From Vicinamibacteria bacterium (GTDB lineage: Bacteria > Acidobacteriota > Vicinamibacteria > Marinacidobacterales > Marinacidobacteraceae), in NCBI GenBank assembly GCA_964291235.2, contig OZ219815.1, positions 576,001-640,000 on the forward strand: a stretch of DNA of 64,000 nt, read 5' to 3'. Positions within the stretch are counted from its first letter, which is position 1, and the number at the start of each line of letters is the position of its first letter. This document shows positions 1 to 46,495 of the stretch, in pieces. The translations under genes and the position numbers were made by a program. Below the pieces are notes generated by a model. It saw nothing but the letters and a program-made list of their open reading frames with translations, had not been told where the DNA came from and ran no database searches.

Positions 1-458
1 ACGAGCTCGAGGAGTTCACCCGAAACCGGATCCGGCGCCGCGTTCTTCCCCTGCTCAGGGACTCCGTGAACCCACGGGCGGAAGCCGCCCTGGGCCGGGC
101 AGCCTCGCTTCTCCGGGACGATGAGGACCTGTTGAGCGAGGTCACGTCCCGGCGTTTCTCCGAAATCGCGGATGTCGGGAAGCGCGAGAACGGCGCCGAA
201 GTCCGGTTTGGGGTCGCCGAACTGGAGGCGGCTCATCCGGCGCTCGCGCGCCGCCTGCTGCGGGAAGCCCTGCGGGTGGCCCGGGGACACCTGCGGCGGA
301 TCGGGGCAGTCCACATCGAGGCGGTCCGCCGCCTGGTCAAGGCCGGCCGCGGCGGCTCTTCGCTGAATCTTCCCGGCGCGACGGTGCGTCTCGAACGACG
401 GGTGCTGACGTTTTCTCCCTCCGAGAACACGGGTGGCGATCACGACGATGAAGCCTGA
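1..458 (+). CDS. tilS: tRNA(Ile)-lysidine synthetase, C-terminal part (5' end outside window)
   Basis: Frame from position 3 reads ELEEFTRNRIRRRVLPLL..NP (TilS RNRIR motif); lies upstream of ftsH as is typical. Confidence 0.85.
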   Translation, partial: ELEEFTRNRIRRRVLPLLRDSVNPRAEAALGRAASLLRDDEDLLSEVTSRRFSEIADVGKRENGAEVRFGVAELEAAHPALARRLLREALRVARGHLRRIGAVHIEAVRRLVKAGRGGSSLNLPGATVRLERRVLTFSPSENTGGDHDDEA

Positions 459-667
459 GCCACCCCGAGCAGCGAGGCCTCGCGAGTCCGGAACCGGTTC
501 TGGGGCCGGGTCGAGCGGGGGAAACGGAGCGCAACCTATAATTTGCCCGGACTATCTTCGTATGACACACGGTTACGGAACAGCCTGCGTTGAGATCCAG
601 GCGGCCTTCGAACAGCGCTCACGCGGGTTCCACCACAAGTCTGCTGCAGCCCGGGCGATGAGTTGAG

Positions 668-2590: not shown

Positions 2591-2680
2591 GCAGTCCGTG
2601 GACTCAGTTGCGTGCCCCAGTTCTCCCGTCATTCCGCCTGAACGACTCCGCTGTGGCGGCAGGGTTTCCCGCATAACAGA

Positions 2681-3529
2681 TTGACCGACACGATCCGCGA
2701 ACTGGCTCAGACCCTCGCGGCTCGCATGTCCTGGACCGATGTCCTGGACATCATCCTGGTGGCCGGGGCGATCTACGTCCTGCTCAAGCTCATCGAAGGC
2801 CGGCGAGCCTCCCAGATGGCCTTCGGCACCGTCATCGTGGGAGGTCTGTTGCTGCTTACCGGGTCCAGTCAGCTCGGTCTCACCACGGTCCAGTGGATCG
2901 TGCGCAACACGCTCCCCTATCTCGGGATAGCAATCATCGTTCTCTATCAGGCGGAAATCCGGACCGGACTTGCCCGGGTCGGCGGCGGCGGGTTCCTGCG
3001 CGGACGCCGCCGGGATCTGGATCCGCAACGCGCCACGATCGCGACGCTCGTGGAAGCCGCCACCGAGCTGTCCCGCCATCGCGTCGGGGCCATCGTGGTC
3101 TGGCAGGGAAACATCGGCCTCAAGAGCTACGCCGATTCCGGCATGCAGCTCGATGCGCAACTGAGTTCCGAGTTGCTGGTGTCGCTGTTCCAGCCCACCT
3201 CCCCGCTCCATGACGGAGCCGCCATCGTGAGTGGCGATCGGATTGTGGCGGCCCGCTGTGTGCTGCCGCTTTCGCGACACGACGCGGCAGACACCGTCGG
3301 GGGTACCCGCCATCGCGCGGCGCTCGGCCTTACCGAGGAGACGGACGCGACGGTGCTGGTTCTTTCCGAGGAGACCGGACAGGCCAGCGTGGTTTCCGCT
3401 GGTCGGATCGTGCCCGTTGCCGACCGTGCCGACCTGGAGGGAGAACTCGCCAGGTCGCGACCCACCCCGTCGAGCGCTTCCGAACCAGCGCCAGCCCGGC
3501 GCCTCTCGAATCCGGAGATCGTGCGGTGA
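2681..3529 (+). CDS. cdaA: Membrane diadenylate cyclase
   Basis: Three N-terminal TM helices; SPLHDGA and GTRHRAALG DAC motifs; SEETG. Confidence 0.95.
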   Translation: MTDTIRELAQTLAARMSWTDVLDIILVAGAIYVLLKLIEGRRASQMAFGTVIVGGLLLLTGSSQLGLTTVQWIVRNTLPYLGIAIIVLYQAEIRTGLARVGGGGFLRGRRRDLDPQRATIATLVEAATELSRHRVGAIVVWQGNIGLKSYADSGMQLDAQLSSELLVSLFQPTSPLHDGAAIVSGDRIVAARCVLPLSRHDAADTVGGTRHRAALGLTEETDATVLVLSEETGQASVVSAGRIVPVADRADLEGELARSRPTPSSASEPAPARRLSNPEIVR

Positions 3530-4497
3530 GGAAGTTCGTCGCCGGATCCGAGTCGTTTCGCGCCGCCGGGATGTTGCGGGCGTTCGTGGCGCTCGGGCTC
3601 GCGTTCGGCCTTTGGTTCTTCGTGGCGGACGACCGGGGAGCCGAAGTCCTGGTTTCCGCACCCCTGGAACTCGTCAATGTTCCACCCGGACTCGAAGTCG
3701 TGGACCAGTCGGTGCAGGAGGTGGACCTGAGGCTGCGCGGCGCCTCCGGACTGCTGCGCGACGCACCCCTCCAGGGGCTCCGCGCCCGGTTGGATCTGAC
3801 GGGCGAGGCGCCAGGCGAACGTACCTGGTTTCTCGGCACCGAGGCGGTCGAAGCCCCTTCCGGCGTCCTGGTCATGCGGGTGGATCCTTCCCAGGTCGTC
3901 CTGCGCCTCGACCGCACCCTGACCAGCACCGTCCGCGTGAGTCCGCGGGTGCTCGGCCAACCGGCGACGGGTTTCGAAATCCACAACGTCGTGATCGACC
4001 CGGTCGAACTCGTCCTCGAGGGCCCGGAGTCGTTGCTGCGCGACACGGCACAGATCACCACCGAACCGATTTCCGCGCAGGGGCTCCGGGAGACCTTTGC
4101 GCAGCGTCTGCAAATCGAGCTCGATCCCGCCCTTCGTCCCTCCGTTCGGCATGTGGACGTGCGCCTCGATATCGGCGAGGCCCGGGAAGCCCGCGAATTG
4201 CGACTGGCTGTCTGGCTGACCCCCGGCGAGGCCGACGAGCCGGCCTGCGCACCCGGGATCAGCGAAATCGCCGCCACGGTGCGCATCCCGATGAGCATGT
4301 TGAACGAGGTCAACGAATCGAATCTCTTCGCCGTCGTTTCCTGCGCGGGACTCGAGTCCGGCGTCTACGAGATCGTTCCGCGGCTCCTGTTCCCCGAAGC
4401 GCCCGACGCTCCGATCGGCGCCGTTGCCTTCGATCCCGAAACCGTCACCACCGTGGTTGGCTCCCCGCCTGCATCGCCGACCCCGGACTGGGACTGA
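3526..4497 (+). CDS. cdaR: YbbR/CdaR-like regulator of CdaA
   Basis: Overlaps cdaA stop (GTGA); single TM followed by YbbR-like repeats (VDLRLRG, VELVLEGP). Confidence 0.8.
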   Translation: MRKFVAGSESFRAAGMLRAFVALGLAFGLWFFVADDRGAEVLVSAPLELVNVPPGLEVVDQSVQEVDLRLRGASGLLRDAPLQGLRARLDLTGEAPGERTWFLGTEAVEAPSGVLVMRVDPSQVVLRLDRTLTSTVRVSPRVLGQPATGFEIHNVVIDPVELVLEGPESLLRDTAQITTEPISAQGLRETFAQRLQIELDPALRPSVRHVDVRLDIGEAREARELRLAVWLTPGEADEPACAPGISEIAATVRIPMSMLNEVNESNLFAVVSCAGLESGVYEIVPRLLFPEAPDAPIGAVAFDPETVTTVVGSPPASPTPDWD

Positions 4498-13354: not shown

Positions 13355-13428
13355 CCGGCGACGATCCGCGCAATCCGCGGGCCGCCGTGAAGGAATCACG
13401 GTGGGATTCCAGTCCCGCCGTCGTTCAA

Positions 13429-13625
13429 CAGCCTGTGGCAAAACCCCCAAGGCCCAGTTCTCCCGGTGGGGGCTCGAGCGGCGATGCATCCCGTCTGAAC
13501 CGCGCCTCTACGAGGCGCTCATCGTTGCGTTTCGGTCGAAATACACTCGGTATTCCTCCCTCACGCGCCTTGTCAGCCGGGCGCCTCGCCACTCTCGGCG
13601 CTCACGGGGGTTTCACCACAGGCTG
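13429..13625 (-). mobile_element. Structured MITE-like element, copy 1 (197 bp; 18-nt extra segment)
   Basis: CAGCCTGTGG...CCACAGGCTG termini; shared core GATGCATCCCG.CTGAAC...GGTCG.AATACAC..GGTATTCC...TCAGCCGGGCG; strand given is the inferred structural strand. Confidence 0.9.
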
Positions 13626-14237
13626 TTAGCGCGCCGGCTCGTAGTACGGGTTCGTTCCGGCGGCGTGGTCGGTGGTGTCCAGGATGGCGCCGATCTCCGG
13701 AACCGCCCGGCGCAGGATCTTCTCGACTCCCTGGCGGAGAGTGGCGGTGGCCATGCCGCACCCCTGACATCCCCCTCCCATGCGAATGAAGACCTGGTTG
13801 CGCTCAACTCCCACGAGGTCGATGTACCCACCGTGGGAGGCGACCGCCGGGTTGATTTCGTCCCGCAGGACGGCCTGGACACGATCCCGGATGTCTTCCG
13901 GCGCCGGGAGGCCCTCGAGCAGCGCGGGGTCCACCGCCGGCTCCGCTCCCTCGAGGACGGATCGGATTCGCTGGCCCGCCTCGCGTCCGATCGGCATCCA
14001 GTTGGCCTGGTTCTCTGCCGCGGTGACCGTGATCAGGTTGTCCTGGATGAGGACCCCTGCAACCCCGGGAATGCCCAGGAGTTCGCGCGCCAGCGCGGAA
14101 CCTCCGGCCGGTCCGGCGGAGTCGAAATAGGCCGATCCCCCGGGGAACACGGGACGGTCAATCACAAACCGGCAGGTCGAGGCGTCGCGCGGCTCGGCCC
14201 GAATGCGGATCGCGGGAGCGGGCGGCGGAAGAGACAT
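13626..14237 (-). CDS. NifU/NfuA-family Fe-S cluster carrier (Nfu N-terminal + NifU C-terminal domains)
   Basis: INPAVASHGG, MGGGCQGC, DTTDHAAGTNPYY; ATG at 14237 (the longer ORF call runs through element copy 2). Confidence 0.92.
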   Translation of the reverse strand: MSLPPPAPAIRIRAEPRDASTCRFVIDRPVFPGGSAYFDSAGPAGGSALARELLGIPGVAGVLIQDNLITVTAAENQANWMPIGREAGQRIRSVLEGAEPAVDPALLEGLPAPEDIRDRVQAVLRDEINPAVASHGGYIDLVGVERNQVFIRMGGGCQGCGMATATLRQGVEKILRRAVPEIGAILDTTDHAAGTNPYYEPAR

Positions 14238-14250
14238 GAAAGAAGCGTAG

Positions 14251-14424
14251 CAGTCTGCGGAGAAAATGACGTGAGCACGGAGAACGGTGAGACGCCCGGC
14301 TGACGAGGCGTGTGAGGGAGGAATACCGGGTGTATTCCGACCGAAACGCAACGATGGGGGCCGCATGGCGGCCCGTTCAGACGGGATGCATCGCAGCCAC
14401 CGGTTGCCGGCAACGCACAGGCAA
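14251..14424 (+). mobile_element. Structured MITE-like element, copy 2 (inverted relative to copy 1, degenerate ends)
   Basis: Core CCCGGCTGA..AGGCG..GAGGGAGGAATAC..GTATTCCGACCGAAACGCAACGATG..TTCAGACGGGATGCATCG; ends CAGTCTGCGG and GCACAGGC. Confidence 0.85.
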
Positions 14425-14808: not shown

Positions 14809-17682
14809 ATGAAACACATCACTTTCCTGGCGCTCGCTCTCGCGGTGCTGGCCGGCGCCCCGGCGTTCGGCCAGACCGCGGGAGAAATCGAGGGCCGGGT
14901 CACCGACTCCCAGGGTCTCGCCATCCCCGGAGCGACCGTCACGCTCTCCGGCGAAGCCCTGATCACCGAACAGCGGACCGTCACCCTGAGTGACGGCTCC
15001 TACCGGTTCCGATCGCTCCGTCGCGGCGCGTACGACCTTCGGTTCGAGATCTCCGGATTCCAGATCCTCCTGCGCGAAGGCATCATCGTCGAGGGGAACC
15101 GGACCATCACCGTCCCGGTGACCCTCGAAGTCGCCACGGTCGCGGAAACGGTCACGGTCACCGGCGAAGCGCCGGTGGTGGACGTCCGCACCACGGCGCT
15201 ATCCACGGACTTCGGGACCGAGGCCCTCCATGAGGTGCCCTCCGCAACCGATGTCTGGGCGGTGCTCGCCCAGACGCCGGGCGTACGGATGCGCGGCTAC
15301 GACGTCGGCGGCAGCCACAAGAGCCAGCAGACGGGCTACGAGAGCTTCGGGATCCGCCGCCAGAACCGGATCCTCGCCGACGGCGTGGACACCACCGAAG
15401 GGGAAAGCGGCACCGGCTTCTACTTCGACTACTACTCCATCGAGGAGTTCACCACCTCGGCCGCCGGCGCCGACGTCGAGATGACCGGACCCGGCTCGAT
15501 GGTCGTCATGACGATGAAGAGCGGCGGCAACGAGTTCAGCGGGCTCCTGCACGCCGACTACGAGCATGAGTCGTTCGTCGGCAACAACGTGGACAGCGAG
15601 CTGGAGTCCCGCAACTTCACGGGCAATCCGAACATCCTGTTCTGGGAAGGCCACGCCGACCTCGGCGGGCCGATCGTGGAGGATCGCGCCTGGTTCTACG
15701 GCTTCTACAACCACTTCCGCATCGACAAGCAGGTCTCGGGGGTGGATCCGAACCTGGCCACCGACCTCGGCGACTTCGACCAGTTCGGCGGCAAGGTCAC
15801 CGCGCAGTTGACCAGCCGGGACCAACTCATCGCCTACACCAACTACCAGTTGAAGCAGAAGCCGAAGCGCGGCCTCTCGAACACGGTGGGTCCCGACTCG
15901 GTCCTGGCCCAGGACAGTTGGAGTTGGGCGCACAAGGGCGAATGGCAGCGCGTCTGGGACGACCGGACCTTCTCGACCTTCGCCGTCAAGCACTTCGGAT
16001 TCGGTTGGCCGATGGTGCCGCAGGTCGATCCGGAGTCGAACCCGCCGCGGTTCGACCAGGCAACCGGCATCCACACCGGCGCCGGCTGGAACACCAACAT
16101 CACCGGGACGCCGCCGTTCACGTTTGAGCGCTGGAAGCCCCAGGTGACGGCCACCGTGAGCCACTACGTGCCCGACTTCCTCGGCAGCCATGACTTCAAG
16201 TTCGGCTACGACTTCCAGATCGACGCCCGGAAATTCGGCGCCAACTCGAACTCCGGTCACGTCCGCTACATCGACGACAGCTCCCAGGGCCGGCCGCTGG
16301 ACGTGGACCAGATCGCGCTGTTCAGCATGCCCGCCGACGGCCAGATCAACGCCGATTCGCGGAACACCCATCACGACGTGTTCGCCCAGGACACCTGGCG
16401 GCCGATCGCCCGGCTGACGCTGAACCTCGGCGTCCGTTTCGGGCAGCAGCGGACTCATTTCCTCGACTCGGAGTCGAACCCGCTGTTCGCCGACTTCTTC
16501 CCGACCGGGGTGACCCAGGGACAGACCCTCGTCACCTGGAACACCTGGGCGCCCCGGGTGGGAGCAACCTATGAGCTCGCGGCGGGAACGGTGCTGAAGG
16601 GTCACTACGGCCGCTACTACGTGAACCTCGCGGACGCGCACCGCCGCGCCGACCCGGCGAACGTGGCCTGGACCCGGTTCGATTTCCTCGATCAGAACGG
16701 GAACGGCCTCTACGACGGGGCGAGCGAGCTCGGCACGATTCGCGCAACGAGCGGCGCTACCGGTACGGCCCTGCGGACGCTGGGCACGCCGGTGAACCCG
16801 AATCTGCAAAAGGAATACGTGGATGAGTTCAGCGTCTCCTTCGAGCACGAACTGGTCGCGGACACCGCTCTGCGCGCGTCCTTTGTCCGCAAGCAGCTCA
16901 ACGCCGACAGCGGGCAGTGGAACGTTCCGCAGCAGACCGCGCTCCTCGAGGGACGCGGCATCCCCTGCGGCACAGACTTCGAGTGTCCGACCAACGCGCT
17001 CACCGGGGCGCCGATCAACGTACAGCGGGTCCCGGACGACGTCGCCAACGTAGTGGACATCCAGACCGACACGTTCCCCGACATGGCGGCCAGCTACGAC
17101 ACCTTCCAGATCGCGGCAAACCGTCGTTTCGCGGGTGGATTCTTCGTGCAGGCGAGTTTCGACTACCAGTGGCGGGACGAGTACCGCGCCGCTTCGGGAG
17201 AATCACGAAGCCCCCTGACGGCCGACCCGATCGACGTGGGCTCCGACGGACACGGCACGATCTGGCAAAACCACAGCCTCGACGTCCCCTTCCGCCAGGA
17301 AACCACGAACTGGAACGGGCGCCTGCTCGCCCGCTACACACTGCCCTACGGGGTCGCGGTGTCCGGAAACGTGCGCTACCAGAGCGGCTGGCCGTGGGCT
17401 CCGATCCAGCGGGTCTCGATTCCCGGTTCGGGCACCCAGCCGATCTTCCTCTCGAACCTCGATGAAAACCGCTCCGACGCGGTGACGCTCGCCGATTTCC
17501 GGATCGAGAAGAACTTCGAGGTCGGCAACGGCTCGCTCCTCACCGCGATGGTGGACGTGTACAACGCCCTGAACTCCAACGCGGTTAGCAACTTCAATCT
17601 GCGGACGGGCGCGAATTACAACAACGTGATCGCCGCCCTCGATCCCCGCGCCGCCAAGGTCGGCCTCCGCCTGACCTTCTGA
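14809..17682 (+). CDS. TonB-dependent receptor with carboxypeptidase-regulatory-like N-terminal domain, paralog 1
   Basis: AAGGAG RBS, signal peptide, GRVTDSQG..IPGATV, ETVTVTGEAPVVD, LGGPI, C-terminal RLTF. Confidence 0.9.
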   Translation: MKHITFLALALAVLAGAPAFGQTAGEIEGRVTDSQGLAIPGATVTLSGEALITEQRTVTLSDGSYRFRSLRRGAYDLRFEISGFQILLREGIIVEGNRTITVPVTLEVATVAETVTVTGEAPVVDVRTTALSTDFGTEALHEVPSATDVWAVLAQTPGVRMRGYDVGGSHKSQQTGYESFGIRRQNRILADGVDTTEGESGTGFYFDYYSIEEFTTSAAGADVEMTGPGSMVVMTMKSGGNEFSGLLHADYEHESFVGNNVDSELESRNFTGNPNILFWEGHADLGGPIVEDRAWFYGFYNHFRIDKQVSGVDPNLATDLGDFDQFGGKVTAQLTSRDQLIAYTNYQLKQKPKRGLSNTVGPDSVLAQDSWSWAHKGEWQRVWDDRTFSTFAVKHFGFGWPMVPQVDPESNPPRFDQATGIHTGAGWNTNITGTPPFTFERWKPQVTATVSHYVPDFLGSHDFKFGYDFQIDARKFGANSNSGHVRYIDDSSQGRPLDVDQIALFSMPADGQINADSRNTHHDVFAQDTWRPIARLTLNLGVRFGQQRTHFLDSESNPLFADFFPTGVTQGQTLVTWNTWAPRVGATYELAAGTVLKGHYGRYYVNLADAHRRADPANVAWTRFDFLDQNGNGLYDGASELGTIRATSGATGTALRTLGTPVNPNLQKEYVDEFSVSFEHELVADTALRASFVRKQLNADSGQWNVPQQTALLEGRGIPCGTDFECPTNALTGAPINVQRVPDDVANVVDIQTDTFPDMAASYDTFQIAANRRFAGGFFVQASFDYQWRDEYRAASGESRSPLTADPIDVGSDGHGTIWQNHSLDVPFRQETTNWNGRLLARYTLPYGVAVSGNVRYQSGWPWAPIQRVSIPGSGTQPIFLSNLDENRSDAVTLADFRIEKNFEVGNGSLLTAMVDVYNALNSNAVSNFNLRTGANYNNVIAALDPRAAKVGLRLTF

Positions 17683-24964: not shown

Positions 24965-27859
24965 ATGAGAAAGATTCTTCTCGCTCTTCTGTTCGTGACG
25001 ATTGCCGTCCCGGCACTCGCGCAGCAGCAGTACGGGCGCCTTGAAGGCGCGGCCCGTGACTCCCAGGGACTCTCTCTCCCCGGGGTGTCCGTCAACCTCT
25101 CCGGTGAGGCCATCATCGGAAGCCGGAACGCCACCACCGACGTGGACGGCTCCTACCGGTTCCAGGCGCTGCCTCCGGGCGACTACACCATCGTGTTCGA
25201 ACTCAGCGGTTTCCAGACCGTCGTGTTCGAGGACATTCGGGTGGTGACCGGCGCGACCTTCTCGGTGAATGCCGACATGCAGATCGCGACGGTGGCCGAG
25301 ACGGTCACGGTGACCGGCGAGTCGCCGGTGGTGGACGTGAAGTCCACCGGCGTGGCGGCGACCTTCGACAAGACGCAATTGGACGAGGTTCCCACCGCAA
25401 CCGACATGTGGGCGGTGCTGCACCAGAGCCCGGGAGTCCGGGTCCAGGGTTACGACGTGGGCGGCTCGCACAAGAGCCAGCAGTCCATGTACGAGACCTT
25501 CGGCGTGCGGAGCCAGAACCGGGTCCTCTACGAGGGTGTGAACACCACGGAAGGCACCGGCTCGGCTGGCGGTTACTACGACTACTACGCGATGGAGGAA
25601 ATGCAGGTTTCGGCGCAGGGCGCGGACGTGGAGATGTCCACCCCGGGCGCGCAGATCCAGACGACCGTCAAGAGCGGCGGTAACGACTTCTCCGGCCTCC
25701 AGAGCGGGGCCTGGAATCCCCCGGATCTGATCGCCGACAACTTCACCTCCGAATTGGGCGCGCGGGACGGCTCCCCGTCACCGGTGCTCTCGTTCTACGA
25801 GTTCCACCTCGACCTCGGCGGCCCCATCGTCCGGGACAAGGCCTGGTTCTACGCGGCCTACAACAACTTCTACATCGATACGGCGATCTCCGGCGTGGAC
25901 CAGAACCTGGCCACGGACATCGGCGACTTCGACATCTTCACCGCGAAGGTGAACTACCAGATCACCGAGCGCGACCAGTTCATCGGGTTCTCCACCTGGT
26001 CCTGGAAGCGGAAGCCCAACCGCGGCCTCTCCGCGACCCGTCCCGCCGAATCCATCCTCGCTCAGGACTACTGGATCTGGCTGCACAAGGCCGAGTGGCA
26101 GCGCGTCTGGAGCGACCGCTTCTTCTCCAACATCATGATCGGCCACATGGGAACGACCTGGCCCATGGTCCCCAAGGGGGATCCGATCAACGGGAACGAG
26201 CCGCGCTTCAACCTCGCCAGCAGCCATGTGTCGGGCGCCGGGTGGCAACCGTTTACCAGGAACCGCTGGAAGCCGCAGAGCACGGCCCAGTTCAACTACT
26301 ACGTCCCGATCGGCAACGGCAGCCACGACTTCAAGTTCGGCTGGGACTGGCAGATCGACAGCGAACTCCGCGGGTTCAACACGAACTCCGGCGCCTTCCG
26401 GTACCGCGACGATCCGGGCCAGGGCCGCCCGCACAACGTGCACCAGATCGACCTCGTGGGAGTTCCCAACCTGGTGGAAAACCCCAACATGCACGCGGAC
26501 TTCTTCGTGCAGGACGTGTGGACCGTCAACGACCGCCTGACCCTGATGGCCGGCATCCGGGTAGGCAGCCAGATCCTCACGTACCTCGAGGCGGACAACT
26601 CCCCTGGCAGCCCGTGTCAGGACGTCTTGCAGTGCCAGTTCGAACTCCCGGCCAATCAGAGCCAGATCCTCATGGACGTCTTTGGCACCGGCGGCATCAC
26701 CCCGGGTGACGATGTGTTCAGCCACTGGAACATCGCTCCCCGCGTCGGGCTGACCTACGACCTGACTGGTGAGGGTTCCACGGTCTTCAAGACCTACTTC
26801 GGGCGCTACTTCTCGAACATCGGGACCGGCCTCTTGTCCGCGAACCCGGGTGGCCAGCCTTCCGCCCGCTACGAATTCCTCGACCAGAACATGAACGGAA
26901 TCCTCGACGATTCTTCGGAACTCGGACAGCAGCTCTCGTTCACCGCGGGCGCCGGGTCCGGCTCCACAACGCCGATCGATCCGAACTGGACGCTCCCCTG
27001 GGCGGACGAGTTGAGCGCCTCGGTCGAGCACGAGCTCACCGCCGACCTCGGTGCGCGGGCGTCGTATGTGTACAAGCGGATGCGCAACACCTGGAGCAGC
27101 TACGACCAGGCCGACCTGGGCCGGAACACCCCGATCTCGATTCCGACCTGCGACGGGTGTCCCGCGGGTTACAACCGGTCGTTCAACCTGCTCCTCTACC
27201 CCGAGGAACTGGTCGGCACGACGGACAACCTCACCACGAACCACCCGGCCGGCGAGAGCGACATGGACTTCCACACCGTTTCGCTCGGACTGAACAAGCG
27301 GTTCCGGAGCAATTTCTTCTACAACGTGTACTTCGACTACCAGTGGCGCTCCGAGCCGCGGAGCCCGGGCGGGTCGTCCAGCGGCTGGGCAACCAGCTCG
27401 CCGCTGTCTTCCGACCCCACGTCGCAAGGCTGGTTCTTCAACTACGATCAGGACATTCCGACCGTTCAGGATACGACCACGTATCAGTTGAAGACTTCGG
27501 CGCGGTATGTCTTGCCGTTCGAGATCGGTTTGGCGGGAACGTATCGGTTCGTGAGTGGGTTCAACTTCGCGCCGACCCACCGCAACCTGGTGTATGACGG
27601 ACGGGTGACGGTCACCTCTTGGCTCGCCCCCATGAATGAGGACCGCTCCCCGAATGTGACGATCGTGGACTTCCGCCTCGACAAGGGCTTCGCCTTGAGC
27701 GATCGCATGAACGTGCAGGTCATTCTCGATGTCTTCAACGCGATGAATGCCAACACGGTCACGAACTTCCAGTTGCTCGATTCGGTGGTGCCCTATCAAC
27801 GAATCGTCGAGTACCTGAAAGGACGAACGATCGGCCTATCGGCGCGACTTACCTTCTGA
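24965..27859 (+). CDS. TonB-dependent receptor, paralog 2
   Basis: GAAGGAGG RBS; same architecture and GYDVGGSHKSQQ motif as paralog 1; ends RLTF. Confidence 0.9.
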   Translation: MRKILLALLFVTIAVPALAQQQYGRLEGAARDSQGLSLPGVSVNLSGEAIIGSRNATTDVDGSYRFQALPPGDYTIVFELSGFQTVVFEDIRVVTGATFSVNADMQIATVAETVTVTGESPVVDVKSTGVAATFDKTQLDEVPTATDMWAVLHQSPGVRVQGYDVGGSHKSQQSMYETFGVRSQNRVLYEGVNTTEGTGSAGGYYDYYAMEEMQVSAQGADVEMSTPGAQIQTTVKSGGNDFSGLQSGAWNPPDLIADNFTSELGARDGSPSPVLSFYEFHLDLGGPIVRDKAWFYAAYNNFYIDTAISGVDQNLATDIGDFDIFTAKVNYQITERDQFIGFSTWSWKRKPNRGLSATRPAESILAQDYWIWLHKAEWQRVWSDRFFSNIMIGHMGTTWPMVPKGDPINGNEPRFNLASSHVSGAGWQPFTRNRWKPQSTAQFNYYVPIGNGSHDFKFGWDWQIDSELRGFNTNSGAFRYRDDPGQGRPHNVHQIDLVGVPNLVENPNMHADFFVQDVWTVNDRLTLMAGIRVGSQILTYLEADNSPGSPCQDVLQCQFELPANQSQILMDVFGTGGITPGDDVFSHWNIAPRVGLTYDLTGEGSTVFKTYFGRYFSNIGTGLLSANPGGQPSARYEFLDQNMNGILDDSSELGQQLSFTAGAGSGSTTPIDPNWTLPWADELSASVEHELTADLGARASYVYKRMRNTWSSYDQADLGRNTPISIPTCDGCPAGYNRSFNLLLYPEELVGTTDNLTTNHPAGESDMDFHTVSLGLNKRFRSNFFYNVYFDYQWRSEPRSPGGSSSGWATSSPLSSDPTSQGWFFNYDQDIPTVQDTTTYQLKTSARYVLPFEIGLAGTYRFVSGFNFAPTHRNLVYDGRVTVTSWLAPMNEDRSPNVTIVDFRLDKGFALSDRMNVQVILDVFNAMNANTVTNFQLLDSVVPYQRIVEYLKGRTIGLSARLTF

Positions 27860-32264: not shown

Positions 32265-35174
32265 CTAGAAGGTCAGGCGGGCGCTGAGGCCGATCGTCCG
32301 GCCCTGGATCCACTCGATGGTGTTCCGGTACGCCCCGCCAGCGCGCATGATGAAGTTGGTCTCCGAGGCGTTGTTCAACGCGTTGAAGACATCCAGCATG
32401 AACTGGATCTCGGCGCTGTCGCCGAGGCTGACCGCCTTGTCCACCCGGAAGTCGACGATCGAGACGGTGTCCGAACGGCGGTTGTCCAGGTGGTCGAGGA
32501 AGATCGTCTGGGTTCCCACGTTTCCGATGCCCACGCTCAGGAGCGGCGCCCACGGGAAGCCGCTGACGTAGCGGAGCGTTCCGGCGACACCGACCTCATA
32601 AGGCATGACGTAGCGTGCCGCGCCCTTGAACTGCCAGTTGGTCACGCTCTGGATGAGCGGGATGAAGCCGTACTGGTAGGTCCAGCCGACCCCGACCGGG
32701 TCCGTCGTGAGCGGGCTCGTGGACTGGCCAGGGGTCCGGCCTTCGTTCCGCCACTGGTAGTCGAAGTAGGCGTTCCAGAAGAAGTTGTTCCGGAACCGCC
32801 GGTTGACACCCAGCGAGAGCGTCGTCCAGTTGAAATCCGCTTCGCCGTCCGGCACGTTCGTGACGAGGTTTTCGCTCGTCGGAGCGCCGTCCGGGAGGTC
32901 GTGCACCGTCAGCATCGTGCCGGCAAGTCCGTCAGGACAGGCGGCAGGGCAGGGAACCTGCTTGGTGTTCGTCAGTTTTCCGGCCCGGGCGATGTTCAGG
33001 GGTTCGAAAAATGCGCCCGTCTGGCGCTTGTGGACGAGCGAGGCGCGGAGCCCGAGGTCGTTGCCAACCTGGTGCTCGAAGGAGGCGCTGACCTCATCCA
33101 CATAGGGCTGTGTCGTGTTCGAGTCCACCGCGCTGCCGGTCGGAGGCACGCTGAAGTCCGAGCCGAGTCCGGCACCCGTGCTGCCGCCGAGACGATCGCC
33201 CAGTTCGTGCACGCCGTCGAAGAGGCCGTTCATGTTCTGATCGAGGAATCCGTAGGTGACGCTCTTGTTGCCACCGGGGTTCGTACTCTGCCATCCACTG
33301 TTCATGTTGTGGTAATAGCGTCCCCCGTAGCCCTTGACGACGGTGCGGCCCTCGCCGGTGACGTCATAGGTGAAGCCCACGCGCGGCGCGATGTTCCACC
33401 AACTGATCACGTTGCTGTTTCCCTGAATTTCGGCGCCAGGTCCGAACAACTGCGGTAGCGCCCCGGCGACATTCGCGTCGATGTCCGCGATCTCGCGGAT
33501 GCAACCGACGACTGCCTGACAGGTGCTGCCCGGCACGTTGTTGGAACCGAGGTACCCGATCCGCTGGCTTCCGAAGCGGACACCCGCGTTGAGCGTCAGC
33601 CGGTCCGTCAACGTCCAGACGTCCTGGGCGTAGAAGTCGATGTGGGTGTTCCGGTCCTGGTTGAAGTTCGGGAAGCTCTGGAAGTGGATCTCGTTCACGT
33701 TTTGCGGCCGCGGCGGATCCTGTGCGCTGTTGTCGAGGTAGCGCACTGCGCCCGAGTTGGCGTTCCAGCCGAACTGCCGCTCGTCGATCTGCATGTCCCA
33801 GCCGAACTTGAAGTCGTGGCTGCCGCTCTCGGTGGGCAGGTAATAGTTGAACTGACCGGTCGAGTGGGGCTTCCAGCGGTTGAAGGTGAACGGCCTCCAG
33901 CCGGCGCCCGACCAGAAGCTGGTGCCCGAGTCGAAGCGCGGCGGATTCGTCGCCGGATCCACGGCAGGCGTCATCGGCCAACCGAAGCCGAAGTGGTTCA
34001 CCTGGATGTTGCTGTAGAGCCGGTCGCTCCAGACTCGCTGCCACTCGGCCTTGTGCAGCCAGCTCCACGAGTCCTGCGCCAGGATGGATTCCGCCGGGCG
34101 GTTCGCCGAGAGACCCCGGAAGGGCTTCTGCTTCAGCGACCAGTGGTGGAAAGTGATGAACTGGTCCCGCTCGGTGATCTGCCAGTTCGCCTTCACCGTG
34201 AACATGTCGAAGTCGCCGAGGTCGGTACCCTCCGATTCGGGCTGCCCGGAAATGATCCGGTCGATGACGAACCGGTTGTAGGCAGCGTAGAACCACGCCT
34301 TGTCCCGCACGATCGGTCCGCCGAGATCGATGTGCGCCTCGTAGAACTCGATCACCGGCGCCGTGGTGCCGCCGCGGCCCATCAGGTCCGACGTGATGTT
34401 GTCGTTGATCCAGTCGGGCGGCTCGTAAGCGAAGTGCTCGGTTCCAGAGAAGTCGTTACCGCCGCTCTTCCACACCGCGTTCACCGTCGCGCCCGGGGTG
34501 TTCGATTCCACATCGGCACCCTGCGCGGACACCTGGAACTCACCGATCGCGTAGAAGTCGTAGTAGCCGCCCGCGCCGCCGGTCCCCTCGGTGGTGTTCA
34601 CACCGTCGTTGATGATCCGGTTCTGTCCCCGGACCCCGAAGGTCTCGTAGCCGGACTGCTGGCTCTTGTGGGACCCGCCCACGTCATAGCCGCGCATCCG
34701 CACGCCCGGGCTCTGCTGGAGGACCGCCCACATGTCGGTTGCCGACGGGACGTCCTCGAGCTGGGTGGTGTCGAAGGTTGCCGACACACCCGTCGTCTTC
34801 ACGTCCACCACCGGGGATTCGCCCGTCACGGTGACGGTCTCGGCGACGGTCGCGATGTCCATCGTGGCGTTGATCTCGAAGGTCGAGCCGCCAACCACGG
34901 TGATGTCCTCGAAGACGACGGTCTGGAAACCGCCGAGTTCGAAGGTCATGTTGTAGCTGCCGCCGACGAGTTGGGCGAATCGGTAGGACCCGTCCACGTC
35001 GGTGGTCGCGCTCCGGGCGGCCACGAGTTCATCGGACTCCAGGGTCACCGTCACTCCGGGGAGCACGAGGCCCTGGGCGTCGCTCGCGGCGCCCTCAAGG
35101 CGCCCGTAAATCTGCTGGGACAAGGCCGCACTGGGCCATGCCACCAGCAGCGTAAAGAGAATGAGTTTTCTCAT
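32265..35174 (-). CDS. TonB-dependent receptor, paralog 3
   Basis: AAGGAGG RBS before MRKLILF; GYDVGGSHKSQQ motif; ends GRTIGLSARLTF, as in paralog 2. Confidence 0.9.
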   Translation of the reverse strand: MRKLILFTLLVAWPSAALSQQIYGRLEGAASDAQGLVLPGVTVTLESDELVAARSATTDVDGSYRFAQLVGGSYNMTFELGGFQTVVFEDITVVGGSTFEINATMDIATVAETVTVTGESPVVDVKTTGVSATFDTTQLEDVPSATDMWAVLQQSPGVRMRGYDVGGSHKSQQSGYETFGVRGQNRIINDGVNTTEGTGGAGGYYDFYAIGEFQVSAQGADVESNTPGATVNAVWKSGGNDFSGTEHFAYEPPDWINDNITSDLMGRGGTTAPVIEFYEAHIDLGGPIVRDKAWFYAAYNRFVIDRIISGQPESEGTDLGDFDMFTVKANWQITERDQFITFHHWSLKQKPFRGLSANRPAESILAQDSWSWLHKAEWQRVWSDRLYSNIQVNHFGFGWPMTPAVDPATNPPRFDSGTSFWSGAGWRPFTFNRWKPHSTGQFNYYLPTESGSHDFKFGWDMQIDERQFGWNANSGAVRYLDNSAQDPPRPQNVNEIHFQSFPNFNQDRNTHIDFYAQDVWTLTDRLTLNAGVRFGSQRIGYLGSNNVPGSTCQAVVGCIREIADIDANVAGALPQLFGPGAEIQGNSNVISWWNIAPRVGFTYDVTGEGRTVVKGYGGRYYHNMNSGWQSTNPGGNKSVTYGFLDQNMNGLFDGVHELGDRLGGSTGAGLGSDFSVPPTGSAVDSNTTQPYVDEVSASFEHQVGNDLGLRASLVHKRQTGAFFEPLNIARAGKLTNTKQVPCPAACPDGLAGTMLTVHDLPDGAPTSENLVTNVPDGEADFNWTTLSLGVNRRFRNNFFWNAYFDYQWRNEGRTPGQSTSPLTTDPVGVGWTYQYGFIPLIQSVTNWQFKGAARYVMPYEVGVAGTLRYVSGFPWAPLLSVGIGNVGTQTIFLDHLDNRRSDTVSIVDFRVDKAVSLGDSAEIQFMLDVFNALNNASETNFIMRAGGAYRNTIEWIQGRTIGLSARLTF

Positions 35175-39459: not shown

Positions 39460-39682
39460 CAGGAGCGCCGGCCTCCAGGCTGGCATCGCGGCCGCAGGTC
39501 GCGAAACTCCCATCGTCAACCGGCCAGGATGGCGCCGCAGCCCGGCAGTGTGGCGCTGCGCCACTCGCGCGCCCGTACGGCCACGCGCGGTCATCGCTTG
39601 GGTCGGTGTTGTGGACGCAGATTGAGTCTGGGAGTTTCGCTTCGCTATGCGAAGCGATGCCGGCCGGAGGCCGGCGCTCCTG
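39460..39682. repeat. Inverted pair of REP-like GC palindromes
   Basis: caggagcgccggcctccaggctggca (39460-39485) and tgccggccggaggccggcgctcctg (39658-39682) are near-perfect reverse complements. Confidence 0.65.
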
Positions 39683-39705
39683 GCACTCCTTGCACTCCTC
39701 GCCCT

Positions 39706-39734
39706 TTGACGGCCGCCGAGCCGGGGCATATCTT
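39706..39734 (+). promoter_or_regulatory. sigma70-like promoter upstream of M20 paralog A
   Basis: TTGACG-N17-TATCTT; context ctcgccctttgac..catatctt is conserved before paralog B. Confidence 0.65.
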
Positions 39735-39738
39735 CTAG

Positions 39739-39917
39739 CAGCCTGTGGAGGAAGTGACGCGAGCACCGAGAACGGGGAGGCGCCCGGCTGACAAGGCGCC
39801 CGAGGGAGGAATACCAGGTGTATTCCGACCGAAGGGCAACGATGAGGGTCGCGTAGCGACCCGGTTCAGCCGGGATGCATCGCCGTTCGAATGCCGCGTG
39901 ACTTTCTGCACAGGCTG
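39739..39917 (+). mobile_element. Structured MITE-like element, copy 3 (179 bp)
   Basis: CTAG|CAGCCTGTGG...GCACAGGCTG|CTCA; full core present. Confidence 0.92.
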
Positions 39918-39986
39918 CTCAAAGTGACCGCTCGCTAGGCGCGATGGTGCGGTCACGGCTCCGTTCGACTCAGGGAGGAGACTCTG

Positions 39987-41672
39987 ATGACCCGAAAAAC
40001 AACCCGATTCGGCCTGTTTTTGATCTTCGCCGCCGGGCTCGGCTTACTGGCCTGTGGAGCGCCCGAGACGGAGGACCGGACCGCCCCCGGCGCCGAGACG
40101 CTCGGCGTCCGGGCCGACGGCGACACCCAGATCTCCCCCGACCTGTCGCGGATTCCCGAGGAACTGCAGCAAGTGTTCCGCCACATCGACGACAACGTGG
40201 ATCGCCAGCACGTGATGAACCTGAGGCGCTGGATCCAGCAGCCGAGCATCTCGAACTCGGGCGAGGGAATCCCCGAGTCGGCCCAGATGGTCAAGGGGTT
40301 CTTCGATCAGCTCGGTTGCCAGCATTCCCAGGTGTACGAGATCCCCATGACCGAGTGGGGGCAGCCGGGCAATCCGGTGGTGTACGCGAACTGCAACTAC
40401 GGCGCCGAGCGCACCCTGCTCATCTACTGGATGTACGACACGATGCCGATCACCCAGCCCGAGGCCTGGGTGCTCCCGCCGTTCGACGGGGAGTTCACCG
40501 AGTTCGGCCCCTTCAAGAAGGTGATGATCGGCCGCGGCGCGACCAACTCCAAGGGTCCGCAGATGGTCCAGTGGAACGCCTTCCACTCGATCTACGAGGA
40601 AACCGGCACCATGCCGGTGAACCTGATCTTCATCGCCGAGGGCGACGAGGAGCGGATGTCCATCGGCCTCCGCCAGTTCGTCCGCGAAAACCCGGATCTG
40701 TTCCGCGAGGCGGAGGCGATGTACCGCTTCGGGCGGCAGTCACGCTCCGGCGCCGCGGGCATCGGGGGCGGTTCGGAAGGCTGCGTTTACATCGAACTCA
40801 CCACCAGCGGAGCGAGCTGGGGACGGGGCCCGGTGGCCTCCAACATCCACGGATCCAGAAAACGCTCCGTGGACGCCCCGGCGCTCCGCCACGTGAAGAT
40901 GCTCTCGTCACTGGTAACCGATGACGGGAACGGGGTGTTGGTTCCCGGGTTCTACGACGGCGCCGACCCGCTGAACGACGCGGAGGAAGCGATGTTCCAA
41001 AACGCCGCCGAGAACATCGACCTGGCGGTCGCCGCCGAGAACATCGGGGTGGCCCGCTTCATCAGCGACGATCCGCTGACCTACCTGAAGAGCGCGCGCT
41101 ACGGCATTTCCTTCAACATGGACGGCGTCTGGGCCGGCAACATGTATCCGGGCGGCGCCGGCGCCATTCTGCCGAACCGCATTACCTCCAAGCACAACAT
41201 GCGCTACGTCCCCAGCATGGACGGGCTGGAGATGGTCCAGAAGATCCGGGACTACCTGGATGAGCAGGGCTACGAGGACGTCGAGATGACGATCATCGGG
41301 GACGTCCCGTGGTCGAAGTCCAGCTACGACAACCGGGCGGCGCACTCCCTGCTGCACACCTATGACATTTTCGGGATCCCCTACCGGGACCCGATCGAAG
41401 GGGAGAGCATCCTCGGCGGTTACTGGCCCGCCTATCTCTTCAGCGGCCGGGACGGGGATTTCGCCGACGGCACCGACCTCTCGATGCCGATCGTGGGCGG
41501 CGCCGGCGGCCACGGAGGCGGCTCCCACGCGGCCAACGAGTTCTGGGTGATCGAGGGCGCCGGCAACGTCTATGGGATGGCCGGCGGCGAGAAGACGGTG
41601 GCGACCTTCCTCTACGCCTACGCGGGGCTGCTCCCCGATGCCCCGGCCGAGACCGGGATGGACGAGGAATAG
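39987..41672 (+). CDS. M20/M25/M40-family metallohydrolase lipoprotein, paralog A
   Basis: GGAGGAG RBS; LLAC lipobox; QQPSIS, YDTMP...W..PPF, GRGATNSKG, EGDEE, HAANE. Confidence 0.88.
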   Translation: MTRKTTRFGLFLIFAAGLGLLACGAPETEDRTAPGAETLGVRADGDTQISPDLSRIPEELQQVFRHIDDNVDRQHVMNLRRWIQQPSISNSGEGIPESAQMVKGFFDQLGCQHSQVYEIPMTEWGQPGNPVVYANCNYGAERTLLIYWMYDTMPITQPEAWVLPPFDGEFTEFGPFKKVMIGRGATNSKGPQMVQWNAFHSIYEETGTMPVNLIFIAEGDEERMSIGLRQFVRENPDLFREAEAMYRFGRQSRSGAAGIGGGSEGCVYIELTTSGASWGRGPVASNIHGSRKRSVDAPALRHVKMLSSLVTDDGNGVLVPGFYDGADPLNDAEEAMFQNAAENIDLAVAAENIGVARFISDDPLTYLKSARYGISFNMDGVWAGNMYPGGAGAILPNRITSKHNMRYVPSMDGLEMVQKIRDYLDEQGYEDVEMTIIGDVPWSKSSYDNRAAHSLLHTYDIFGIPYRDPIEGESILGGYWPAYLFSGRDGDFADGTDLSMPIVGGAGGHGGGSHAANEFWVIEGAGNVYGMAGGEKTVATFLYAYAGLLPDAPAETGMDEE

Positions 41673-41765: not shown

Positions 41766-41832
41766 CCAGAGTTGGCCGTCCCCCGGAGTGAGGTGCGGCC
41801 GCTGCTCGGTCCCACCCACGAAGGAGATTTTG

Positions 41833-43515
41833 ATGACGCGAAACGCAACCCGATTCGGCCTGTTCCTGCTGCTCGTTTGCGGGCTCGGCTGGCTCGCCTG
41901 CGGAGCCCCCGAAATGGAGGACCGGATGGCGCCCGCCACCGAGACACTCGGCGTGCGCGCCGCGGGCGACACGGAAATTGCACCCGACATGTCGCAGATC
42001 CCCGAGGAACTCCAGCAGGTGTTCGGGCACATCGACGACAACATCGATGAGCACGTGATGAATCTCCGTCGCTGGATCCAGCAGCCGAGCATCTCGAACT
42101 CGGGCGAGGGAATCCCCGAATCAGCCCAGATGGTCAAGGGGTTCTTCGACCAGCTCGGCTGTCAGCAATCGCAGGTGTACGAGATTCCCATGACCGAATG
42201 GGGGCAGCCCGGCAACCCGGTCGTGTATGCGAACTGCGACTACGGCAAGGAGCACACGATCCTCATCTACTGGATGTACGACACGATGCCGATCACCCAG
42301 CCCGAGGCCTGGGTGCTCCCGCCGTTCGACGGGGAGTTCACCGAGTTCGGCCCCTTCAAGAAGGTGATGATCGGCCGCGGCGCGACCAACTCCAAGGGTC
42401 CGCAGATGGTCCAGTGGAACGCCTTCCACTCCATCTACGAGGAGACCGGATCCATGCCGGTCAACCTGATCTTCATCGCCGAGGGTGACGAGGAGCGGAT
42501 GTCCATCGGCCTCCGGCAGTTCGTCCGCGAAAATCCGGAACTCTTCGCCGAGGCGGACGCGATGTATCGCTTCGGTTCCCAGTCGCGCTCCGGGGCCGCC
42601 GGCATCGGCGGCGGATCGGAAGGCTGCGTTTACATCGAACTCACCACCAGCGGAGCGAGCTGGGGACGGGGCCCGGTGGCCTCCAACATTCATGGGGCAC
42701 ACAAGCGCTCCACCGACGCCCCGGCGCTCCGCCACGTAAAAATGCTCTCTTCCCTGGTTACCGAGGACGGGAACGGGGTGTTGATTCCCGGGTTCTACGA
42801 CGGCGCCGACCCGCTGAACGACGCCGAGGAGGCGATGTTCCAAAACGCCGCCGAGAACATCGACATGGCCGTTGCCGCCGAGAACATCGGAGTGGCCCGC
42901 TTCATCAGCGACGATCCGCTGACCTACCTGAAGAGCGCGCGCTACGGCATTTCCTTCAACATGGACGGCGTCTGGGCCGGCAACATGTATCCCGGCGGCG
43001 CCGGCGCGATCCTGCCGAACCGGATTACCTCCAAGCACAACATGCGCTACGTCCCCAGCATGGACGGGCTGGACATGGTCCAGAAGATCCGGGACTACCT
43101 GGATGAGCAAGGCTACGAGGACGTCGAAATGACGATCATCGGAGACGTCCCGTGGTCGAAGTCCAGCTACGACAACCGGGCGGCGCATTCGCTGCTCCGC
43201 ACCTACGACGTCTTCGGCATCCGCTACCGCGATCCCCTCGAGGGCGAATCCATACTGGGCGGTTACTGGCCGGCATACCTGTTCAGCGGCAGGGACGGGG
43301 ACTTCGCCGACGGCACCGACCTCTCGATGCCGATCGTCGGCGGGGCGGCCGGACACGGCGGCGGCGCCCACGCGGCCAACGAGTTCTGGGTCATTGAGGG
43401 CGCCGGCGAGGTCTATGGGATGGCCGGGGCCGAGAAGTCGATCGCTACTTTCCTCTACGCCTATGCCGGACTGCTACCCGATGCCCCGGCCGAGACAGGG
43501 ATGGACGAGGACTAG
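41833..43515 (+). CDS. M20/M25/M40-family metallohydrolase lipoprotein, paralog B
   Basis: GAAGGAG RBS; highly similar to paralog A with long identical stretches. Confidence 0.88.
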   Translation: MTRNATRFGLFLLLVCGLGWLACGAPEMEDRMAPATETLGVRAAGDTEIAPDMSQIPEELQQVFGHIDDNIDEHVMNLRRWIQQPSISNSGEGIPESAQMVKGFFDQLGCQQSQVYEIPMTEWGQPGNPVVYANCDYGKEHTILIYWMYDTMPITQPEAWVLPPFDGEFTEFGPFKKVMIGRGATNSKGPQMVQWNAFHSIYEETGSMPVNLIFIAEGDEERMSIGLRQFVRENPELFAEADAMYRFGSQSRSGAAGIGGGSEGCVYIELTTSGASWGRGPVASNIHGAHKRSTDAPALRHVKMLSSLVTEDGNGVLIPGFYDGADPLNDAEEAMFQNAAENIDMAVAAENIGVARFISDDPLTYLKSARYGISFNMDGVWAGNMYPGGAGAILPNRITSKHNMRYVPSMDGLDMVQKIRDYLDEQGYEDVEMTIIGDVPWSKSSYDNRAAHSLLRTYDVFGIRYRDPLEGESILGGYWPAYLFSGRDGDFADGTDLSMPIVGGAAGHGGGAHAANEFWVIEGAGEVYGMAGAEKSIATFLYAYAGLLPDAPAETGMDED

Positions 43516-43694
43516 CAGCCCGTGGCAAAACCCACGCGGCGTTCGACGAGCGATGCATCCCGTCTGAACCGTGCCGCTTCGCGGCGCTCGGCGTTGCGCT
43601 TCGGTCGAAATACACCCGGTATTCCTCCCTCGCGCGCCTTCTCAGCCGGGCGCCTCGCCCGTCTCGGCGCTCACGCGGGTTTCACCACGGGCTG
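43516..43694 (-). mobile_element. Structured MITE-like element, copy 4 (179 bp)
   Basis: CTAG|CAGCCCGTGG...CCACGGGCTG|CTAG; the left CTAG contains the paralog B stop codon. Confidence 0.93.
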
Positions 43695-43808
43695 CTAGCA
43701 ACCGGAAATTGAGCAGCGCTCTGGTTCGTCCCGGGGACCCGGCTTCCGGAGGGGAGCCGGGTCCGACGTTTGGGGCGCGCCCCTGACCCCTGAAAGGCCA
43801 CGAGACCC

Positions 43809-46074: not shown

Positions 46075-46125
46075 GAATCCGCCGGCCGGCGAGCGGCGGC
46101 AGGTTCAGTCGGGCAGCGGGATTAA

Positions 46126-46304
46126 CAGCCTGTGGACAAAGTCACGCGGCATTCGAACAGCGATGCATCCCGGCTGAACCGGGCCGCTGCGCGACCCTCA
46201 TCGTTGCGTTTCGGTCGGAATACACTCGGTATTCCTTCCTCACGCGCCTTGTCAGCCGGGCGCCTCACTGTTCTCGGTGCTCACGTCACTTTATCCACAG
46301 GCTG
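46126..46304 (-). mobile_element. Structured MITE-like element, copy 5 (179 bp)
   Basis: TTAA|CAGCCTGTGGA...TCCACAGGCTG|TTAA. Confidence 0.93.
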
Positions 46305-46495
46305 TTAACGGAGCGGTCAGGCCGGACGGATCCGCCTGAGCGAAGACCCGCTCCAGCCGCCACTGAATCCAGATTCCATCGCCGCCGCCCGAGAGGAGAA
46401 AGAACAGCAAGAAGCCGGCGGCGATCGCCGCATCAGGAAACCGGCGGACCCGCTCTTTGATCACCCGGTCTGTGCGGGGCTACCGGTATCGCTTC

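Follow-up and report, generated by a model that had tools for sequence, protein, structure and literature searches.

A dispersed repeat of Vicinamibacteria, probably an IS630-type miniature element, with a strand-specific fold that appears to be under selection

Small repeats in bacterial genomes are usually taken for passive debris that needs its ends alone. Here we ask whether this description fits one such repeat in the genome of a Vicinamibacteria bacterium, found in a stretch of 64,000 nucleotides (nt) that we call the window (contig OZ219815.1, positions 576,001 to 640,000 of the forward strand). The copy under study occupies positions 39737-39919 (+), is 183 nt long, and has a T at 39736 and a C at 39920, where an A is expected. 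The initial annotation had placed it at 39739-39917 as a candidate mobile structured RNA or single-stranded DNA (ssDNA) module; the element proved real and its boundaries were revised. With a probability of roughly 0.55, we regard it as a high-copy, non-autonomous MITE (miniature inverted-repeat transposable element), probably of the IS630 type, with a strand-specific fold that is under selection, likely as RNA. The element inserts at TA with duplication, is dispersed, keeps its fold by compensatory changes, and follows pairing rules that belong to one strand.

Both halves of the copy pair over its entire length. Folded as RNA, its minimum-free-energy structure reaches -119 kcal/mol against -70.1 +/- 4.4 for shuffled sequences (z = -11.2; none of 200 shuffles as good), and the reverse strand folds at -102. 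In this structure, about 46 pairs interrupted by small loops form a rod, and two arms, A and B, cap it. The parts, with positions in the model of the element in brackets, are the following.

39737-39791, + strand: 5' arm of the rod (model 1-55), with the terminal inverted repeat, the conserved internal-loop strand CCGA and GAGGCGCCC
39798-39837, + strand: arm A (model 62-101), a covarying closing helix (here GCCC/GGGC) around a near-invariant GGAATAC-N5-GTATTCC hairpin
39846-39862, + strand: arm B (model 110-126), a variable hairpin of 7 bp and a 3-nt loop, missing from the 162-nt form of other families
39866-39919, + strand: 3' arm of the rod (model 130-183), with the conserved GGGATGCATCG and TCGAATGC and the terminal inverted repeat

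The rod, the arm with GGAATAC-N5-GTATTYC and the 7-bp hairpin with its 3-nt loop had all been proposed from the letters of the window, and they are those of the minimum-free-energy fold; the strand on which the copies had then been aligned is the opposite of the best-folding one. A three-way junction, likewise proposed, is present but specific to the bacterium's own family, and most relatives carry a single capping hairpin in a 162-nt element. The 7-bp stem does vary from copy to copy, but its pairing is imperfect: read on the better-folding strand, there is a C.A mismatch in the copy at 43.5 kb and a U.G pair in that at 46 kb. Conservation is 0.90 in unpaired and 0.88 in paired columns, and many bulge and loop bases are invariant. 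Bulged A139 and G43/A143 are near invariant, one G.U pair is fixed in 44 of 46 sequences, and the loop of hairpin B is a C(GNA)G triloop in 32 of 52 copies. No covariation is seen in paired stretches like GAGGCGCCC/GGGATGCATC, and the invariant core holds two exact palindromes (GGAATAC-N5-GTATTCC and GATGCATC) that are AT-richer than the 68% GC genome. Readings of the loops as hammerhead- or hairpin-ribozyme-like or as k-turn-like, made by inspection only, had no support from any tool and were dropped.

Five copies, four full and one truncated, lie in the window.

39736-39920, + strand: the full copy under study with its flanking T (39736), orthologous in three genomes of the genus with the same odd right flank
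13427-13627, - strand: full copy of 201 nt, with an 18-nt insert that is a nested module
13454-13471, + strand: the nested 18-nt module within the preceding copy, an exact match
14249-14395, + strand: truncated copy, model positions 1-148
43514-43696, - strand: full copy of 183 nt, its terminal repeat with a T-A to C-G swap
46124-46306, - strand: full copy of 183 nt, 90% complementary to the copy at 39737

The base-pair swaps that the initial annotation had listed are all found in these sequences, namely GCGT/ACGC, GCGC/GCGC and GCCC/GGGC in the second arm, AAACCC/GGGTTT versus AAAGT/ACTTT and GACG/CGTC versus GAACAG/CTGTTC in the rod, and the terminal T-A to C-G exchange in the copy at 43514-43696. 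The whole genome (3.45 Mb in two contigs, 90% complete, 68% GC) yields 80 nhmmer hits, 54 of them near full length. Units span 162-255 nt, terminal repeats with at least 11 paired bases occur in all 54 copies, and the copies are older, with a median pairwise identity of 84% and a best value of 97.8%. Against Rfam 15 there was no match at the gathering score over the 64-kb window and none at E<=10 over 39700-39960, and a tRNA and tmRNA search found none. Searches of the published literature, supplementary files not covered, gave MITE reviews and no account of this element.

Strong evidence that the fold matters comes from covariation. When 29 copies of the 183-nt class are compared, standard pairs make up 96.5% of 1913 cells, and both partners vary at 29 of the 66 pairs; none of 500 partner shuffles matches any of five measures, and sliding the partner by 1-3 columns leaves 5-10 pairs that vary in this way. 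A structure-blind scan took in 52 copies (the 54 without two deletion variants) and 16,110 column pairs; the two highest ranks, and 13 of the top 60 places, went to predicted pairs, and the other leading pairs reflect subfamily descent. By FastTree and parsimony, a test built from the same alignment columns, 61 same-branch double changes fall on true pairs, 50 of them reaching a standard pair, against 13.1 +/- 3.5 (maximum 29 in 2000) in a partner-shuffled control; single-side changes preserve pairing in 125 of 245 cases. The class-wide alignment of 48 sequences, which was fitted to the model, has 93.8% of cells paired and 51 of 66 pairs changing on both sides, with none of 500 shuffles matching and 12-22 such pairs in the slid controls. 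Internal covariation, first suggested from the copies in the window, is hence significant and far above chance in larger sets, and the selection on the fold that had been read from it agrees with what stays constant, namely the fold, while the stem sequences vary. At one locus shared between genomes, the orthologous elements are 93-95% identical, and the orthologue in the bacterium's own genome shows changes from G.G to C-G at 64/99 and from C-G to U-A at 113/123. Such in-place compensation, seen at a single locus, is anecdotal; past this locus, the other pairs filled in both genomes were different repeats or mis-oriented.

The stems also carry a clear strand signal. In the own genome they contain 311 G:T against 28 A:C cells, or 114 against 28 without the pairs that are mostly G:T, and class-wide the counts are 175 and 39. 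Under RNA parameters 52 of 54 copies fold more stably on the given strand than on its complement, and under DNA parameters 51 of 54 do. Owing to the excess of G:T over A:C, the folded form is one particular strand of fixed polarity, RNA or ssDNA, as a constraint on duplex DNA or a cruciform involving both strands would not yield this asymmetry. The candidate of the initial annotation is borne out in its mobility, and the strand signal fits a single-stranded species; of RNA and ssDNA, we consider RNA the more likely folded molecule, though unproven. Metatranscriptome contigs from four runs in two studies hold the family at a summed depth of 425-3880 against 0-230 in the flanks, but these contigs are strandless, lack ends and continue into varied flanks, with depth summed across many copies and organisms, and this depth is a weak sign of transcription.

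How widely the fold is kept was followed with a covariance model in 101 related genomes and 151 genomes sampled across the phylum. The family is present in 61 of the former, among them all 15 from the genus, 21 of the 27 from the bacterium's family and members of other orders of the class, and in 14 of the latter; the carriers belong to the Acidobacteriota, class Vicinamibacteria, and many are metagenome-assembled genomes labelled Candidatus Marinacidobacterium. Single genomes have at least 125-150 matches, with at least 150 copies in one genome of 3.9 Mb. Viral contigs and plasmids contained nothing that matched either the element or its core pattern. Outside the own family, the element measures 162 nt and lacks arm B. 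The 48 sequences represent several families. Their terminal repeats are of at least three classes, which begin with AGCAGCC, AGTGTCC or AGTACTC, and the loops CGAGA, CAAGG, CAACG, GGGATGCA-CG and TCGAATGC are conserved at 95% or more. The stem of hairpin A, near invariant close to home, covaries in other families, from AAUAC/GUAUU to AUAUU/AAUAU types.

Several variants depart from this plan. Rod-only mini copies of 40-115 nt, without a cap, were found as 16 end pairs (e.g., C2:98845-98904, C2:795031-795091 and C2:1515082-1515121), and some hold an 18-mer where the cap would be. Their existence means that the cap is unnecessary for the mere presence of a copy. In composite copies (loci L146, L151, L174, L192, L082 and L102), an element has a second one nested in its junction strand, near model position 130; the inner site is similar to an end of the element itself (CAGCC), as though it acted as a second end, and tandem arrays of right halves of the element occur among these loci.

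With regard to mobility, 48 of the 54 copies have a T in position -1, 41 have an A in position +1 and 37 have both, in a genome where TA makes up 1.1% of dinucleotides. Seventeen filled/empty pairs, with foreign filled sites set against the own genome, include three clean ones with a single TA, the rest having diverged flanks; in these, duplication of TA is indistinguishable from a TA target and an element that itself ends in TA. A 4-bp YTAR duplication was rejected: the second and second-to-last bases pair even where the outer flanks differ. At the site of 39737, three genomes of the genus have the element, with an odd right flank common to them, and at least nine lack it; another site of the own genome is filled in none of 14 relatives. 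Not every empty site is tidy: that of copy G000:C1:386778 reads TCA, not TA, in relatives about 82% identical, and that of 39737 is not clean, with a 33-nt palindrome (39924-39956) alongside. This palindrome (GTGACCGC...GCGGTCAC), directly right of the copy, accompanies the element at orthologous filled sites but is missing from most of the empty sites, and is thus another small insert. TA being rare, many copies occupy the TA of stop codons: in 59 adjacencies (17 in the own genome, 42 in others), the stop codon of the neighbouring gene, TAG or TAA, consists of the flanking T and the first two bases of the element. Gene callers will terminate genes inside the element.

A candidate for the parent comes from genome G222, with about 46 copies that have identical ends (93 end matches against 3 for a control). 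There, a 5'-truncated gene of the IS630 family (DDE_3) is followed by an end that agrees with an arm of the MITE in 22 of 24 bases, with an A coming next; this fragment is the best lead to the parent. An autonomous parent in the own genome was sought and rejected, as end-like 10-mer pairs 0.8-3.7 kb apart hold ordinary genes and no transposases. Among the 101 relatives, DDE_3 is found in 41 (including the unpublished G036) and Y1_Tnp in 56, and neither tracks the element. A separate observation concerns insertion sequences (ISs) of the IS630 family with ends of their own: all 3 that were examined (L264 in G004, L284 and L285 in G001) lie exactly in a TA that adjoins an end of the element, so that in these GC-rich genomes such TAs seem to be preferred as targets.

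Taken together, we propose that transposases of the IS630/Tc1-mariner type would mobilise the element in trans by reading the terminal repeats alone, and that the remainder would be selected as the single-stranded fold of one strand. The folded form would most likely be RNA made by transcription of the element. By analogy with the ERIC and Correia repeats, this RNA may serve as a compact hairpin for host RNA-binding or processing proteins, which could recognise it through the invariant loops, namely the CGAGA/UCGAA internal loop, the helix with a G.A pair and a bulged A, and the CAAGG and CAACG junction strands. Most sites are unshared between species, yet all subfamilies keep the fold, which suggests that selection acts mainly, or at the least, on the lineages that propagate.

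A number of points weigh against this proposal. As to the parent, the IS copy in G222 is single as well as truncated, and the own genome, at its 90% completeness, has no match to the IS630 family (DDE_3) and none to DDE_Tnp_1. The element occurs in 26 of 41 DDE_3-positive and in 35 of 60 DDE_3-negative genomes, and the IS630 copies examined in the own genus (G001, G004) have other ends. As to RNA, the metatranscriptome contigs reveal neither strand nor ends, and carry-over of DNA is possible. Moreover, the fold strand is antisense to the adjoining gene in 156 adjacencies and sense in 85 (n=241), with 17 sense and 53 antisense from the own genome and 68 and 103 from other genomes; within the own genome, the ratio is 12/30 at 3' ends of genes (p = 0.008) and 5/23 at 5' ends (p = 0.0009). 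Read-through transcripts should thus mostly carry the weaker-folding strand. C(GNA)G triloops, for their part, are especially stable in DNA. The dependence of the tree test on its own alignment columns and of the class-wide alignment on the model, mentioned above, belongs here too.

In an alternative that we judge unlikely, the folded molecule is ssDNA moved by a structure-specific enzyme, as for REPINs with their repetitive extragenic palindrome (REP)-associated tyrosine transposases (RAYTs), IS200/IS605 or integron attC sites. The rod would then be free to vary, the bulges and loops would be recognition marks, and the apparent TA duplication would be a TA target plus an element ending in TA. 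Strand-specific pairing rules suit this idea as well, and so do the triloops of hairpin B and terminal repeats that vary among lineages around invariant loops. It would also suit head-to-tail arrays, which have an exact period of 183 nt with a TA common to neighbours (G009:C1:1754218-1754766 and 1812855-1813403; further loci L082, L113, L115, L136 and L143) and a single orientation of adjacent copies in all cases seen. The own genome does have one RAYT-like Y1 transposase gene, of 243 aa, outside the window (G000:C1:16193-16921, locus L198 1096-1827), and Y1_Tnp is found in 40 of the 61 genomes with the element and in 16 of the 40 without it. On both sides of this gene, however, stand tandem repeats of about 121 nt with a GCCGGCC...GGCCGGC hairpin and an 18-mer, and gene and repeats look like a separate system of the REP/RAYT type. 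A RAYT as the general mobiliser was rejected on this ground and because complete genomes with many copies each (G063, G061, G069, G097 and G222, at least 26-150 copies) gave no Y1_Tnp match. Orientation is independent of local GC skew (16/14 versus 11/13), which also disposes of a replication-linked explanation for it; many G.T positions are fixed, which would be costly in DNA; and the end of the element matches an IS630-family element. Nor does the element resemble palindrome-associated transposable elements (PATEs, derived from IS200/IS605), which lack terminal inverted repeats and duplication and have hairpins set apart near their ends, given that its ends pair with each other across the whole length.

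We find it distinctly unlikely that the fold is free of selection and that mutation keeps the arms complementary, through either intrastrand template switching or the correction of mismatches in extruded hairpins, reinforced by gene conversion between copies and by their origin from a few palindromic masters. Many of the double changes are indeed transversion flips on a single branch (e.g., C-G to G-C), the terminal G-C/A-U pair switches about eight times on the tree, and the subfamily structure yields many covarying column pairs that are unpaired. Correction should erase bulges, internal loops and G.T pairs, however, and all three are fixed across the class. The excess of G:T over A:C, 11 to 1, is equally hard to obtain in this way, the branched cap is no simple palindrome, and the rate at which single-side changes keep pairing (125 of 245) compares with a rough, uncomputed guess of about one quarter for random changes. 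Template switching, which the initial annotation had itself offered as an alternative, thus fits poorly with the conserved bulges, the fixed G.U pair and the strand asymmetry. Very unlikely, finally, is that the two exact palindromes of the core, AT-richer than the genome, are duplex sites for dimeric host proteins (a nucleoid protein or a regulator, for example), comparable to the sites for integration host factor in Correia and BIME repeats, and the rod is incidental: the absence of covariation in regions such as GAGGCGCCC/GGGATGCATC would agree with this, but it leaves 51 of 66 covarying pairs and the strand asymmetry unexplained, and the stem of hairpin A covaries in other families.

Having returned to a mobile element with a selected single-stranded fold, we can compare it with known systems. 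ERIC (enterobacterial repetitive intergenic consensus, also IRU) sequences are MITE-like imperfect palindromes of about 127 bp in Enterobacteriaceae, whose co-transcription is reported to alter mRNA stability, and in the portion of PMC3184786 consulted they share with our element the TA at both ends, terminal inverted repeats, a full-length imperfect hairpin, proximity to genes, and internal insertions that make size variants. Our element, in contrast, belongs to a different phylum, has a branched or bulged cap and loops that are invariant in the class while the terminal repeats change, reaches at least 150 copies in a 3.9 Mb genome, and owes its size variants to a module of 18-20 nt. Wilson and Sharp reportedly noted compensatory changes in ERIC in 2006. 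The Correia elements (CREE/NEMIS) of Neisseria, according to the same portion of PMC3184786, are TA-duplicating MITEs of about 100-160 bp, gene-adjacent and transcribed; duplication of TA and location near genes are common to both, and functional internal sites are a property of Correia. For our element, the evidence points instead to a strand-specific fold with a conserved non-helical core, and no internal promoter was found in the one copy scanned. The function of Correia elements has been ascribed to promoters, a duplex site for integration host factor and cutting of the hairpin by RNase III. A strand-specific covarying fold and a loop core conserved in the class set our element apart from ERIC and Correia, its nearest analogues.

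REPINs, as far as the consulted part of PMC3116915 goes, are short hairpin-forming mobile DNA in which pairing is kept during within-genome evolution. Hairpin-forming mobile DNA and a single-copy RAYT-like gene are found here too, but our element is much longer, has TA flanks and terminal repeats, its genome's Y1 gene lies beside another repeat, and several element-rich genomes have no RAYT-like gene that we could find. Integron attC sites are recognised by their structure, that of a single folded strand whose extrahelical bases are conserved and whose terminal structure varies. They resemble the element in a single strand kept by structure and in conserved unpaired bases, and differ in that its copies are dispersed, with no cassette arrays, and its ends are of the TA-flanked AGCAG and AGTGT types, with no attC core.

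The module just mentioned deserves a description of its own. Copy lengths step by 18 (183, 201, 219, 237 and 255), in the own genome and elsewhere, as a 20-mer (the 18-mer with a trailing GC) replaces a dinucleotide for a net gain of 18. Hot spots lie near model positions 39, 45, 56, 76, 122 and 156, with an orientation fixed per site and insertion sometimes in tandem, and the orthologous copy in G004 has gained the 18-mer in place. That all sites are unpaired loops proved too strong a statement, since the hot spots near 45, 76 and 122 lie within or between pairs. The 18-mer occurs 194 times in the genome at no more than 3 mismatches, 136 times outside the element in other repeats. Its loci are as follows.

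L206, L151 and L082: nested module, besides 13454-13471 in the window and genome-wide in the own genome (G000)

The module recalls the SDRs, small dispersed repeats of cyanobacteria reportedly described by Elhai et al. in 2008, as a very small repeat found inside MITEs and other repeats in either orientation; it differs from them in phylum and sequence, in replacing a dinucleotide by a 20-mer, and in its few hot spots of fixed orientation. A bolder thought, unlikely in our eyes, is that the invariant core is a self-standing structured RNA or ssDNA module with a job of its own, such as catalysis or the recruitment of a protein of the host or of a transposon, and that the MITE is its vehicle. 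If so, the core would have hitch-hiked on at least three classes of terminal repeats across the phylum, and with the 20-nt module would make up layered selfish structured elements, a system of a kind not described in bacteria.

Around the copy at 39737, one further feature bears on its setting.

39706-39734, + strand: promoter-like site TTGACG-17-TATCTT just upstream of the copy, by consensus match only

This site is kept at orthologous sites, filled and empty alike, and for this reason the copy probably sits in the 5' leader of the downstream gene, as far as a sequence motif can tell. That gene has a tandem paralogue (39946-40506 and 41792-42349, 79-92% identical). Upstream, at 39640-39680, lies a GC-rich hairpin repeat of the GCCGGCCGGAGGCCGGC type, a family that adjoins many copies of the 18-mer elsewhere in the genome. 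The window also holds a large gene in three long diverged copies (15000-17200, 25000-27400 and 32700-35100; 70-80% identical, direct and inverted), and FG-GAP-like repeats at 21.6-22.8 kb and 50.5-51.7 kb.

For a repeat of a kind usually regarded as inert, the element is unusual in that its fold and loop bases are conserved across the class as its ends change, in hundreds of natural variants and with a clear strand signal. These properties make it a ready test case for selection on structure in MITE-like repeats, for its level, on the element or on the host, and for its molecule, RNA or DNA. On a practical note, an unannotated element of up to about 150 copies per genome affects gene calls, through the stop codons in its ends, as well as assemblies and small-RNA surveys of sponge-associated and soil Acidobacteria.
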